From Polymorphobacter sp. (GTDB lineage: Bacteria; Pseudomonadota; Alphaproteobacteria; Sphingomonadales; Sphingomonadaceae): a stretch of 63,893 bases of DNA. Position numbers and translations under genes: made by a program. Under the pieces are notes generated by a model. It saw only the letters and a list, made by a program, of their open reading frames with translations. It searched no databases and was not told the DNA's origin. Below, in pieces: positions 27,757-33,668 of this stretch. The stretch lies in assembly GCA_031422995.1 (NCBI GenBank), contig JANPEP010000008.1, positions 1 through 63,893 on the forward strand, read 5' to 3'. Every line of letters starts with the position of its first letter. Position 1 is the first letter of the stretch.

Positions 27757-27796
27757 CTGGCTTCGGACCGCGTCGCCTGCTATGCGGGCGCCGCGG

Positions 27797-28179
27797 TCAG
27801 AGGATCGGGCGATCGCCGCTGCGTCAGCAGGGGAGGAAAGTCCGGGCTCCACGGAACGCGGTGCCGGGTAACACCCGGCGAGGGTGACCTCAGGGAAAGT
27901 GCCACAGAGAGCAGACCGCCGATGGGCTCCTTTCGGGGAGAGACAGGCAAGGGTGAAAGGGTGCGGTAAAAGCGCACCGCGCGATGGGCAACCAAAGCGG
28001 CATGGCAAACCCCACCGGGAGCAAGACCGAATAGGGACGGCACGGACCTTCGGGTCCAGGGCAGGAACCGGCCCCGCCGTCCGGGTTGGTTGCTTGAGGC
28101 GCCGGGCAACCGGCGTCCTAGAGGAATGATCGTCCAGAAGTTTCGGCTTCAGACAGAACCCGGCTTACAGATCCTCTGA
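27797..28179 (+). ncRNA. rnpB: RNase P RNA, class A
   Basis: GAGGAAAGTCCGGGCT, GAAAGTGCCACAGA, AGACAGAACCCGGCTTA; terminal tcagaggatc/gatcctctga helix. Confidence 0.97.
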
Positions 28180-28430: not shown

Positions 28431-28542
28431 GCGCGGGCAAAGCCCACGCCGTCGGACGGGTTCGGCGCGCTTCGCCCGCGCCGCCCCGCCGGCCGAGCTT
28501 GCGCGAGTCCGCGCAGCTACGCTGCGCGCGGCCGCGGCTGCG
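28431..28542 (-). repeat. Structured 3'-end repeat (family B) copy 4
   Basis: gggcaaagccc, gtcggacgggttcg, ccgccccgccggccgagcttg, gcgcagctacgctgcgc; overlaps stop of the TPR gene. Confidence 0.8.
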
Positions 28543-30334
28543 CATCAAACGCCACCGTCAACCTTTCCGCCTCACTCTCAAACCCCGTCGTCCCATGCCA
28601 GAAATACGACGGAAACAGCACCAGCCGCCCCGCCGCCGGCACCACCACCCGCCTTGCCTCCAGCGTCAGCCCCAGCGCCGCCTCCGGCACCCCGAACGCC
28701 AGCGCCCCGCCCGTCCCCGCCGCCACCTCCGCCGGCACCCCGATATACAGCGCCGAACTCATCCACCCCTCCGGATGCACGTGGCTGACATGGAATCCCT
28801 GCTCCTTCAACCGCACCGACCATGATCCGGCCAGCGCAATCCGCCCGGTGTTGCGCCCCAGAAACGGATGCCCGGCATCACGCGGCAACCCGGCAATCGC
28901 TGCCTCCACCGTCGCCACCACAGCGTCCTGCAACGCCCGCACCACCGGGTCAACGCTGTCGAACAACCGCCCACGCGTCTGCGTGCCCCCCCGCAACGAT
29001 TGCTCCGCCGGCGCCGCCAGCGTCACGTGCATCCGCGTCAACACCGGCGCCAGATCATCCAGAAACCCGCGCAAGTCGCTCCACCCAGCCGGCACCACCA
29101 GGTCCTGCACCATCACCAGCCGGTCATAATCCGCCAGCCATGCCTCCCGCGCATCGCCCATCAACCGCCAGATGATCGTCAACAGCGCCCAGGGGGATTG
29201 CGCCATCGGTGCCAACCGCGTCGCCGCCAGCGCACACGCTTCGGCCCGCGCCAGATCGCCCGTCTGCAAGAACAGGTGCGCCAGGTGATTCTGCACCCCC
29301 AGACTCTGCTGGTCCGCCGCCAACGCCGCCGCAATCGCTGCCGGTGCATCTCCCATCACCGTCAACGCCGCAATCCGCGCCATCGTCCAGTCGCCATGCG
29401 GACCATGCGCGACCTCGGCTGCGGCCGCCCATTCCAGCATCGCCGCCGCATCACCCACCGCCCGCGCCGTGCCGATTGCCGCCACCCACACCGCGCGATC
29501 CATCGGCCTTTGCAACGCCTGCCGATACCCGGCCAAGGCTTCGGCCCCGCGCCCGATCTGCGGCAACAGCAACGCCAGCGCATCCTGCGCCTCCACATAC
29601 CCCGGCGTGGCCGCAATCACCGCCCGATATTGCGCCACCGCCTCGTCAAACCGCCCCAACTCCGCCAGCACCGCCGCCCGCGTCGAACCCGTCTCGGGCG
29701 CCGTCAAACCATCGCGCATCGCCTGCTCAAACGCCGCCAGCGCCGCCTCGGGCTCGCCAATCATCCGCAGCCCCGTCGCCAGATTATGCCGCGCCCGCAA
29801 ATCCCGCGGGTTGATCGCCAACACCCGCCGCCACGCCGCCACCGCCGCTACCGGCTGCCCACGTTGCTGCTCCAGAAACGCCAATGCACTCCACGCCCGG
29901 GCGTCCTTGGGTGCCAACGCCGTGGCCCGCCCCGCCGCCATCTCGGCAACGTCCCAATCCGCATCCCTGGCCGCGCCCAGAGCCAGATTGATCCACGCCT
30001 CCACATGCCCCGGCGCCGCCGCAACGGCCTTGCGCAGCGCCGCCATCGATCCGGCGGCATCCCCCATCGCGCCCAACAGATTGGCGTAACTGTTCCAGAT
30101 CCCGGCATTGCCCGGCGCCGCCGCCAATGCTGACTCATACAAGGACCGCGCTTCATCCCGCCGCCCCTGCAATTCTGCCGCAATCGCCCGCAAATACAGC
30201 GCGTCCGGGTGCGCACGCGCCGCCATCGACAAGCTGCGCAGCGCCTGTTCCGCACCTGCCCCGGCACCCGATTGCAATAACCCCAGCGCCCGCTGCAACA
30301 CCGCCATGTCGGCGGCTGCCAACCCCGCGATCAC
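28517..30334 (-). CDS. TPR-repeat protein fused to putative 2OG-Fe(II) oxygenase
   Basis: Multiple TPR-like helices, QSLRGGTQT, HVSHVHPEGW, FPSYFWHGT, RLTVAFD; GTG start overlapping upstream stop (ATG 30307 is an alternative). Confidence 0.85.
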   Translation of the reverse strand: MIAGLAAADMAVLQRALGLLQSGAGAGAEQALRSLSMAARAHPDALYLRAIAAELQGRRDEARSLYESALAAAPGNAGIWNSYANLLGAMGDAAGSMAALRKAVAAAPGHVEAWINLALGAARDADWDVAEMAAGRATALAPKDARAWSALAFLEQQRGQPVAAVAAWRRVLAINPRDLRARHNLATGLRMIGEPEAALAAFEQAMRDGLTAPETGSTRAAVLAELGRFDEAVAQYRAVIAATPGYVEAQDALALLLPQIGRGAEALAGYRQALQRPMDRAVWVAAIGTARAVGDAAAMLEWAAAAEVAHGPHGDWTMARIAALTVMGDAPAAIAAALAADQQSLGVQNHLAHLFLQTGDLARAEACALAATRLAPMAQSPWALLTIIWRLMGDAREAWLADYDRLVMVQDLVVPAGWSDLRGFLDDLAPVLTRMHVTLAAPAEQSLRGGTQTRGRLFDSVDPVVRALQDAVVATVEAAIAGLPRDAGHPFLGRNTGRIALAGSWSVRLKEQGFHVSHVHPEGWMSSALYIGVPAEVAAGTGGALAFGVPEAALGLTLEARRVVVPAAGRLVLFPSYFWHGTTGFESEAERLTVAFDAQPRPRAA

Positions 30335-30828
30335 CCGCCCGGCCACGGCCGCCAGGCCGCCCGTTCCGCCTCCAGCACCGCCAGCCGCTCGGCACCAAAC
30401 CCTCGGCCCAATTGCGCCGCCAAATCTTCTGCCGCCTTCGCCGTGCCATTGCCGCCACCGGCCGCCAGCTTCGCCCAAACCCAGGCCCTGCCGGTATCGG
30501 CCCGCACGCCATGCCCGCCGGCCAATGCCTTGGCCAATGCCAGCTGCGCCGGTGCATAGCCGCGGTTCGCCGCCCGTAACCACCATCCAACCGCCGCCGC
30601 GCCATCGGCGCCGCCACCCAAGCCCTTGGCGGCCATTACCCCCATCAGTGTTTCCGCAATCGCCGAACCGCGATCCGCCACCGGCCGCAACTTGGCCCGC
30701 GCCGCCGCATAATCCCCCGCTGCATAGGCCGAAAGCCCGGCTTCCAGCGCCGCAGCCGCGCTTTCCACGGCAACAGCCGGGCTCGCAATCAACCCCGCAG
30801 CAAATCCCGCCACTATCCGCCGCATCAT
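30331..30828 (-). CDS. Sel1-repeat exported protein
   Basis: Signal peptide, WWLRAANRGYAPAQLAL...GHGV. Confidence 0.82.
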   Translation of the reverse strand: MMRRIVAGFAAGLIASPAVAVESAAAALEAGLSAYAAGDYAAARAKLRPVADRGSAIAETLMGVMAAKGLGGGADGAAAVGWWLRAANRGYAPAQLALAKALAGGHGVRADTGRAWVWAKLAAGGGNGTAKAAEDLAAQLGRGFGAERLAVLEAERAAWRPWPGG

Positions 30829-32962: not shown

Positions 32963-32996
32963 AAAAACGCCGGCGACCTCGCGGCCACCGGCGTTT
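32963..32996 (-). terminator. Rho-independent terminator after the Cys-pair peptide gene
   Basis: Minus strand aaacgccggtggcc-gcga-ggtcgccggcg followed by TTTTT. Confidence 0.75.
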
Positions 32997-33018
32997 CCAT
33001 CAGTCAGGTCTCAACTGC

Positions 33019-33162
33019 TCAGCAGCAGTCGAGCACCGCGTCGCAGCACGCGGCCGCAGCCACGCAACAGGCACTGGCCGCCTTGGCCACGGCCACAGGA
33101 TTGGCCGCAAGCGCAGCCGTCGAAGCGAACAGCAAACCTGCTGCAAGAATGATCTTCTTCAT
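33019..33162 (-). CDS. 47-aa secreted peptide with CC-x5-CC-x5-CC (putative metal-binding)
   Basis: MKKIILAAGLLFASTAALA signal peptide then ANPVAVAKAASACCVAAAACCDAVLDCC; own terminator. Confidence 0.75.
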   Translation of the reverse strand: MKKIILAAGLLFASTAALAANPVAVAKAASACCVAAAACCDAVLDCC

Positions 33163-33197
33163 GATGTGTCTTTCAAAAACGAAAAAAAGGAATAAAC

Positions 33198-33515
33198 TCA
33201 AGCTATCCCAATTCGCGGCGGCGGCACATCCGGTGCCACATTCACCGCTGGGGACCCCTCCGTCACCCGCGGAAAAATCATCGCCATCGACCAGCCTGTC
33301 ACCACCGCAACCCGCGCCGGCTCCGGTTGCACCAGACAGGCCAGGCACGCCATGTCACACCCCATGGTCGGCATTGCCTGCCCATGATCACGGCCACCAT
33401 CCATCATACCCGCTTTAGTCATGCCCGCGTCCGTCACCGGGCACGCCATAACCGGCGTCACCGCACCGATCATCAGGATCGTCGCAGCAAGCATGATACG
33501 CAAAAGGCCGAACAT
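33198..33515 (-). CDS. DUF2946/CutF/CruR-like CxxC...PPP leader protein
   Basis: Signal-like N-terminus, Met-rich linker, CDMACLAC, C-terminal PDVPPPR. Confidence 0.65.
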   Translation of the reverse strand: MFGLLRIMLAATILMIGAVTPVMACPVTDAGMTKAGMMDGGRDHGQAMPTMGCDMACLACLVQPEPARVAVVTGWSMAMIFPRVTEGSPAVNVAPDVPPPRIGIA

Positions 33516-33668
33516 CTGCTTCACAATGGTCAAACTACCGCCAAGGCGCAACCGTGACAAGACGGCGCTTGAGCCACAGCCACCGCCTATCTATGAACAC
33601 TTCATATTCATCGACCGTGCTGCAAAACCTGCAGCGCGGATTTTGCATTTTCACTGGGGCCCGCCGCC

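Follow-up and report, generated by a model that had tools for sequence, protein, structure and literature searches.

A CutF-like leader ahead of a small six-cysteine peptide gene: a conserved pair in alphaproteobacteria and its possible role in copper buffering

What are two small open reading frames doing between recG and sdhE in a Polymorphobacter sp. genome, and why should a gene of 47 codons be preceded by an ORF more than twice its length? The window analysed here, a stretch of 63,893 nt of contig JANPEP010000008.1 from a genome that is 97.9% complete (G000), carries in the minus-strand recG-sdhE interval a leader ORF, a spacer, a peptide ORF and a terminator hairpin, in that order. An earlier note on this DNA had described a 105-aa leader, a 35-nt spacer, a 47-aa peptide and a terminator flanked by recG and sdhE. 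We recovered each of these elements, and Pfam identified the flanking genes as RecG and SdhE. The features are as follows.

33532..33560, minus strand: candidate sigma70-like promoter, TTGTCA-N17-TAGTTT, proposed from sequence
33198..33515, minus strand: CutF-like leader ORF, 105 aa, from translation and equivalents at 46 of 51 loci
33336..33359, minus strand: CDMACLAC codons (C53-x3-C57-x2-C60), predicted metal-sensing motif, from sequence
33213..33233, minus strand: PDVPPPR codons, leader residues 95-101, predicted stall motif, from sequence
33209-33189, minus strand: second weak hairpin, then U7, from folding
33163..33197, minus strand: U-rich spacer of 35 nt, 18 of them T, from sequence
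33174-33169, minus strand: weak Shine-Dalgarno-like GAAAGA, in a predicted weak hairpin of the spacer
33019..33162, minus strand: peptide gene, 47 aa, CC-x5-CC-x5-CC, ending CCVAAAACCDAVLDCC, from translation
32963..32996, minus strand: intrinsic terminator-like hairpin with GC stem, GCGA loop and U5, from folding

The terminator hairpin, which a simple terminator scan missed, is predicted at -32.9 kcal/mol (z = -4.41, with 0 of 200 shuffles as stable) and sets the leader-peptide unit apart from recG. The peptide is hidden inside a longer ORF call, as had been claimed, since the ORF list places it within a 109-aa GTG-started ORF (33348-33019). The recG-sdhE gap measures 740 nt in the window versus ~80-110 nt in all five congeneric genomes, none of which has a leader or peptide match at this site. 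Given the short gap in the congeners, the unit is therefore a lineage-specific insert of ~640 bp. This insert carries no enzyme gene, in agreement with the statement that no modifying enzyme is adjacent, and it also contains a terminator-like hairpin on the plus strand just upstream of sdhE (33615-33639). Elsewhere in the window, downstream of recG and a Sel1 protein, positions 28517-30586 (minus strand) encode a TPR-repeat protein whose C-terminal part is a putative 2OG-Fe(II) oxygenase domain, and the ORF-list translations at ~27780-28150 resemble those that an RNase P RNA gene would yield.

The bare CC-x5-CC-x5-CC motif occurs three times in the six frames of G000, so the motif alone is no proof of a gene; the proof lies in its conservation across 115 clusters with a dN/dS of 0.11. 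At E up to 10 an iterated profile search found 117 clusters: 115 with at least one CC pair and two false matches without Cys. An unindexed search gave 80 representatives at E up to 0.001. The dN/dS value comes from 18 distinct genes of the main clade, where 41 of 63 variable columns are third positions. Cys spacing is exactly 5/5 in 115 of 180 sequence entries, and the remainder have shorter spacings or fewer Cys. The peptide is thus a real, unnamed family under purifying selection. Its records come from the Sphingomonadales and Rhodobacteraceae, the titled ones from Sphingomonas, Novosphingobium, Erythrobacter, Blastomonas, Sphingomicrobium, Sphingorhabdus, Sphingobium, Paracoccus and Gemmobacter.

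The distribution is patchy: the peptide was found in at least 12 of 351 genomes of the window's family, with no more than 19 candidates scored in each genome, and in the family around locus L052 (homologous loci carry L numbers) 7 of 301 genomes matched, three being true members and four matching profile positions 1-28 only. Profiles were needed to find the family, since a single-sequence search with the window peptide was nearly blank (one relative only); against 150 family genomes it gave one clear match, the others being signal-peptide noise at E 0.02-1. Seven weak matches from a class-wide profile search of 400 genomes were rejected because four lack the peptide and three match the signal part only. 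A plasmid tblastn with a 49-aa peptide query found no match, which we take as low sensitivity for a low-complexity query of that length, the clade being clearly mobile. Gene callers often miss or mis-start the peptide, and its records read 'hypothetical protein' where named, bar two JGI labels ('cysteine synthase' and 'mevalonate pyrophosphate decarboxylase') that are impossible for a 49-aa peptide. Pfam gave no family at a useful score; Phage_coatGP8 matched 3 of 72 members (best E 2e-4), which we read as signal plus Ala-helix composition and set aside. A PDB sequence search returned only signal-region matches (E 0.13-0.62), and ESM Atlas neighbours of the peptide are unnamed clusters.

The predicted Sec signal spans residues 1-19 (MKK, a hydrophobic core and A-L-A at -3/-1), leaving a predicted mature 28-mer, ANPVAVAKAASACCVAAAACCDAVLDCC. 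By eye there is no lipobox at the predicted cleavage site, and a lipoprotein reading was dropped. Among 72 aligned members, picked for having six Cys, A17 is present in all 72, A19 in 71 and each of the six Cys in 71-72, and the A-x-A at the predicted cleavage site is retained across the family. A single-chain structure model of low confidence (pLDDT 60) has two helices, with a helix at 22-42 and residues 43-47 unstructured, and puts the last Cys pair outside the helix. Plotted on an ideal helical wheel, the six Cys share an arc of 140 degrees (320 to 100 degrees) with small or hydrophobic residues that are conserved, and the charged Lys27, Asp41 and Asp45 lie opposite at 180-220 degrees. The mature peptide is hydrophobic (GRAVY 1.4) and 21% Cys. 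A metallothionein-like chelator had been suggested, and a small Cys-rich peptide it is, but the predicted Ala-rich helix without His or Lys-rich spacers makes this only a loose fit.

Several variants of the peptide were also observed. A 38-aa subfamily (P0104-P0130; L086:1501-1617 and L087:1498-1614) ends H-x-x-A-K-x-C-G-L-P-C-C and has three Cys only, with no leader at L086 or L087 and the L087 copy directly before a TonB-dependent receptor gene. In the longer members P0093, P0241 and P0243 the 7-residue Cys repeat is extended to four to six units, presumably approaching the look of the Csp helix repeat. At L033:1498-1614, near a contig end, the 5' half of the peptide copy is swapped for other sequence, probably by insertion. 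The homologous locus L069 is present in 20 sequencing runs, one of them on record as RNA, and the contig from that run covers the leader end and the peptide and ends at the terminator; DNA carry-over is likely because the library also has a 158-kb contig.

We tabulated 51 peptide loci, leaving out the duplicates L031, L034, L035, L043, L083, L092 and L093, the truncated L033 and the peptide-less L091. A CxxxC...PP leader ends just upstream of the peptide in 46 of these, compared with 26 of 6000 random ATGs of G000. Since one mobile clade contributes 29 of the 51 loci and four are nearly identical, 15 of 20 lineages, after collapsing near-identical loci, is the fairer count. The five leaderless loci are L082 and L084-L087. 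The homologue search that had been proposed as a check on the pair thus came out in its favour.

The window leader has a signal-like N-terminus (by eye Arg6, a hydrophobic stretch at 7-19 and V-M-A before Cys25), then Cys25, a Met/Gly-rich linker, a CxxxCxxC motif and the C-terminal PDVPPPR; it would be 108 aa long if the in-frame GTG at 33524 serves as start. C53 and C57 are invariant in an alignment of four leaders. The PPP lies at residues 98-100 of 105, within the last 15, and 40 residues from the CxxxC. The CxxxC-to-xPPR spacing is 37-42 residues over 13 lineages, and the distance from the leader PPR to the peptide ATG is 52-70 nt. CutF-like leaders are defined by sequence rules rather than by a Pfam family (PMC8456105, PMC9973294), and the window leader is below the 150-170 aa limit, has no Pfam domain, contains CxxxC and a PP in its last 15 residues, and has a same-strand gene 35 nt downstream where the rule allows up to 1000 nt; the signal peptide that the rules also ask for is a judgement by eye. 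The proposed resemblance to a characterised class of upstream leaders therefore stands under the rule-based definition. Its assignment to the DUF2946 type does not: 0 of 7 leaders matched PF11162 at E up to 10 (HMMER filters hide E above ~0.1), and the RAPP and long spacer of CruR are absent. Nor did the window leader match any Pfam or NCBIfam family. The sensing motif had been given as CxxC; a Cys motif is indeed present, but the form common to the homologues and CutF is the CxxxC of C53-C57. A leader profile scored the L052 leader at only 5.8% probability, so leaders of different lineages are linked by pattern rather than by demonstrated homology.

At L061:2638-3150 the leader stop codon is lost and leader and peptide form one ORF, which may reflect natural variation or an error in sequencing; protein P0221 is a similar-looking fusion. 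The islands of L044 (7031-7417) and L047 (6824-7192) have another small ORF with a signal and a His/Cys cluster, which precedes an OEP efflux gene and resembles CzcI-type leaders; the L044 copy has no Pfam match.

Upstream of many homologues we found a putative transcriptional layer that the earlier note had overlooked, together with the leaderless members. The motif GTAAC-N16/17-CGAA is present in 30 of 51 loci and 7 of 20 lineages versus 5 of 6000 random ATGs, and it matches the SigF consensus GTAACC-N16-CGAA (PMC3511200). In 29 loci the site precedes the leader start by ~10-20 nt; in L082, which has no leader, it immediately precedes the peptide. The same type of motif precedes the sigF-nrsF pair of G000; on contig C200 (L099; 18012 and 20157) this pair and a convergent exported-protein gene each have TGTAAC-N16/17-CGAA. 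The window copy has no SigF-type site upstream of its leader. At the position of the homologues' site stands TTGTCA-N17-TAGTTT, which ends 7 nt before GTG 33524. It agrees with the consensus at 8 of 12 positions, too few for the scan threshold, and the same loose pattern lies no more than 60 nt from 3 of 6000 random ATGs; this candidate would yield a leaderless mRNA. SigF reportedly responds to chromium and cadmium in Caulobacter. In Azospira it reportedly responds to reactive chlorine and drives the scavenger peptide MrpX (PMC4436054), and it regulates the copper-binding bufferins (PMC11626156). Given these responses to Cr, Cd and chlorine, a SigF-type promoter does not single out copper. One stretch of 12 kb (L107:1-12000) has eight SigF-type motifs along with the leader-peptide unit, making it a compact SigF regulon island whose genes, with labels partly by eye, include MNIO, DUF2063-like, DoxX-like, sigma and nrsF-like.

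To model a translational switch, we forbade pairing under a ribosome stalled on the leader and computed the opening cost of the peptide's binding region. The mean cost fell from 8.0 to 5.2 kcal/mol on modelled stalling over 28 distinct sequences, mostly of one clade, masking in itself cutting the cost somewhat in any sequence. The fraction of 60 shuffles per lineage that equalled the gain was 0.00-0.03 in 4 of 13 lineages, including that of the window, and above 0.05 in the other nine; when a longer stretch was folded, the Polymorphobacter copy had no gain from stalling (6.8 to 7.9 kcal/mol). Leader tails of differing sequence are predicted to pair with the GGAG site, both in L052 and in the large mobile clade. 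The weak hairpins of the spacer region in the window are no better than shuffles (z about -0.6 to -0.8), and no conservation of the one at 33209-33189 was observed among homologues. These models are no more than suggestive of a stalled ribosome opening the peptide's ribosome-binding site.

A Pfam scan of 82 of 112 extracted ORFs at 19 loci showed that the neighbourhoods of the homologues point to metal or thiol stress. Rhodobacteraceae members sit among copper chaperone genes. L052 and L080 are flanked by SCO1/SenC and DUF411, with PCuAC also at L052, and L101 is likewise among SCO/PCuAC genes. The main clade (L042, L044) and L038 are flanked by MerR, cation efflux and OEP genes, L051 by cation efflux and TonB receptor genes, and L100 lies near a P-type ATPase end and a MerR gene (by eye). 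At least three loci (L084, L088, L090) lie among thiol-redox genes. The leaderless peptide of L084 is placed between msrB-msrA and an ECF sigma-nrsF pair, L088 and L090 are beside a pyridine nucleotide-disulfide oxidoreductase gene, and L088 and L089 beside thioredoxin, L088 having DsbD_TM as well. L081 is directly preceded by MNIO and DUF2063, and one locus adjoins SBF/LMWPc genes, presumably an ars operon. No metal or redox neighbours were present in the stretch seen at L037, L065, L085, L086 or the window.

With the gene pair, its spacing, its terminator, the purifying selection and the family-wide linkage established, we favor the explanation that a CutF-like leader senses periplasmic copper, stalls at PPP and turns on an exported six-Cys peptide that buffers copper, and we give this about an even chance (0.5). 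By this account, the motifs suggest a single transcript beginning shortly ahead of the leader, driven by a SigF-type promoter in many homologues and by a sigma70-like one in the window. The leader would sense periplasmic copper during its own export, and, by analogy with CutF, copper at the CxxxC would prolong the stall. The stalled ribosome would then melt the pairing of the last leader codons with the peptide's ribosome-binding site. Signal peptidase is predicted to free an unmodified 28-residue amphipathic helix bearing three Cys pairs seven apart on one face. Several such helices may associate, hold Cu(I) via thiolates and buffer the periplasm as a one-helix version of the Csp bundle. Along a helix, Cys seven residues apart lie too far from each other for one ion to bridge them, and the binding of several metals would thus take a number of helices, as in Csp. 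Counting against this explanation are the five leaderless loci of 51, the window copy without a SigF site or adjoining metal genes, and the free thiols of a Sec-exported peptide, which may be oxidised in the periplasm. The mixed outcome of the stalling model, the SigF responses to agents other than copper, the loci among thiol-redox genes, the low-confidence structure model and the weight of one mobile clade among the 51 loci also count against it.

The same kind of switch and peptide might instead serve another soft metal or metalloid (Cd, Hg, Ag or As(III)), which we think unlikely. The MerR, cation-efflux and OEP genes of the commonest clade, the SBF/LMWPc locus and the Cd and Cr response of SigF would all suit it, as would E. 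coli R773 ArsD, whose vicinal pairs Cys112-113 and Cys119-120 have the same CC-x5-CC spacing (PMC4562236). However, the ArsD likeness is a match of spacing only, the Rhodobacteraceae members lie among copper chaperone genes, and Cys-type CutF-like leaders mostly precede copper genes (PMC9973294). There is likewise a small chance that the peptide serves as a sacrificial thiol antioxidant of the periplasm, a Cys counterpart of MrpX that hypochlorite or oxidants driven by metals would oxidise and CcdA/thioredoxin-type systems would restore, with the leader Cys reading redox state. SigF-NrsF controls MrpX in Azospira (PMC4436054) and the redox genes beside L084 and L088-L090 fit such a role. Yet a scavenger needs no fixed spacing, whereas most entries are exactly 5/5 with a conserved one-face pattern, and copper-chaperone and efflux contexts are equally common. 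More improbable is a reversed sign or a role in supply: metal would end the stall and so switch off the peptide, which would be a copper store or donor for SCO/PCuAC, and the window hairpin and U7 could be an attenuator. CruR does repress with copper (PMC9426467), L052, L080 and L101 lie among SCO/PCuAC genes and the window has the hairpin at 33209-33189 followed by U7, but this hairpin is neither better than shuffles nor seen conserved, the PPPR and short spacer resemble CutF rather than CruR (RAPP, 162-nt spacer), and a stress-induced SigF promoter fits defence.

Could the peptide be a RiPP precursor, its Cys modified by an MNIO of the bufferin type or some other enzyme that acts in trans ahead of Sec export? 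The earlier note had raised this option and our searches leave it weak and quite improbable. Bufferins are Sec-exported, SigF-regulated Cys peptides (PMC11626156), MNIO is present in 6 of 10 other peptide-bearing genomes, the L106 unit directly follows MNIO and DUF2063 genes on the same strand, and L107 and L108 have theirs ~8 kb from MNIO. On the other side, MNIO (PF05114) had no match in G000 or in 4 of the 10 other carriers, two of those being 99-100% complete, and inspection by eye finds separate bufferin-type precursors in two or more of the three MNIO clusters (L106, L108). None of the 72 peptide members matched the precursor family DUF2282 (the other precursor type, BUF_6/12Cys, has no Pfam model), and no modifying enzyme recurred beside the peptide in the Pfam scan of 19 loci, the genome-wide search covering the MNIO family only. 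The co-location with bufferin genes in three genomes is better explained by shared SigF control. It is hardly credible, finally, that we are dealing with a disulfide-based envelope or signalling peptide, or that the window copy is a decayed constitutive remnant. The hydrophobicity of the mature peptide, the weak Phage_coatGP8 matches and the weak Shine-Dalgarno, lacking SigF site and absence from five of five congeners of the window copy could be read in that way, but both ORFs, the six Cys, their spacing and the terminator are intact in the window, and the metal and redox neighbourhoods and the Cys-sensor leader would be left unexplained.

Beyond the copper-switch explanation, we tentatively propose a broader picture, which as a whole we regard as doubtful. 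Unmodified Sec-exported peptides of 20-30 residues would self-assemble into a Cys-lined helical bundle, a minimal periplasmic copper store; control would require two keys, an ECF sigma factor making the mRNA and a metal-sensing nascent chain licensing its translation; and the 700-bp unit may move between alphaproteobacteria as a stand-alone module. CutF- and CruR-type leaders have been described as switches for enzymes, transporters and chaperones, while here a micropeptide would be gated, in a unit that travels on metal-resistance islands. If the peptide does bind Cu(I) unmodified in the periplasm, it would be an alternative to bufferins that needs no enzyme, and possibly an analogue of Csp with a single helix. 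At ~600 bp the unit offers a compact model of how CutF-like stalling acquires its sign and its metal specificity, and it might be used as a part in biosensing or metal recovery.

Among the nearest known systems is CutF-cutO of Rhodobacter capsulatus, in likeness of motif and spacing taken from published numbering rather than from a direct sequence alignment. CutF has C69xxxC73 and P109EPEGPPPRL118, giving 40 residues from C73 to P114 (PMC8456105). When copper is present or EF-P is missing, the ribosome halts at the PPP of CutF, and a stem-loop that covers the cutO ribosome-binding site is opened (bioRxiv 10.1101/2025.02.05.636593). Shared with CutF are a small upstream ORF with a signal-like N-terminus, a CxxxC with an upstream Cys, a C-terminal PPPR, 40 residues from CxxxC to PPP, a short spacer, a same-strand target and, in several lineages, predicted pairing over the downstream ribosome-binding site. 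Unlike in CutF, the target is a 38-50-aa Cys peptide followed immediately by a terminator rather than an oxidase, transporter or chaperone, and many copies add a SigF-type promoter where cutF expression is described as apparently not Cu-regulated. CruR (DUF2946) of Bordetella pertussis also has a Cys motif and a C-terminal Pro-Pro motif in an upstream ORF, with RAPP ~45 residues after its CXXC as against 37 residues from C60 and 40 from C57 to the PPP in the window. It differs from the leader described here, which has no PF11162 match, PPPR in place of RAPP and a spacer of 35 rather than 162 nt, and it acts by Rho-dependent termination, with copper repressing (PMC9426467).

On the side of the peptide, bufferins share Cys and, on the predictions made here, Sec export, SigF-NrsF control and a proposed role in periplasmic copper buffering (PMC11626156), but the present peptide has no MNIO/DUF2063 partner in G000, differs in sequence, and is shorter, predicted to be helical, built on vicinal Cys pairs and putatively leader-gated. 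Csp copper storage proteins likewise present Cys on one face of alpha-helices. In the Csp bundles, Cu(I) is bound by Cys of neighbouring helices, and these Cys withstand oxidation (PMC5171941); a Csp is a single-chain four-helix bundle with CXXXC and inter-helix sites, whereas here there is one short predicted helix with CC pairs that would need to oligomerise to resemble it, and no Pfam or PDB sequence match to Csp. MrpX of Azospira suillum, a periplasmic peptide of a SigF regulon, is likewise small, signal-bearing and rich in one sulfur amino acid, but it is Met-rich and charged with a cognate reductase in its operon, while the present peptide is Cys-patterned, hydrophobic and preceded by a leader (PMC4436054). 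As to the small, Cys-rich metallothioneins, with which it shares presumed thiolate metal binding, the peptide departs from them in its signal peptide, its predicted helix and its lack of a Pfam metallothionein match. The bacterial forms SmtA/BmtA and MymT are cytoplasmic and non-helical when apo.

In the literature searched, which covered few subscription papers, the peptide family is undescribed, and its motifs and one accession matched no paper; the accessible part of an MNIO survey (PMC12452194) makes no mention of it. Named CutF-like targets in the accessible part of PMC9973294 are efflux, TonB, chaperone and HupE/UreJ genes, and File S1 of that paper, which lists CutF-like genes with their neighbours, might include leaders of this family. 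Set beside these systems, the locus would place a familiar type of switch on a type of target that is as yet undescribed.
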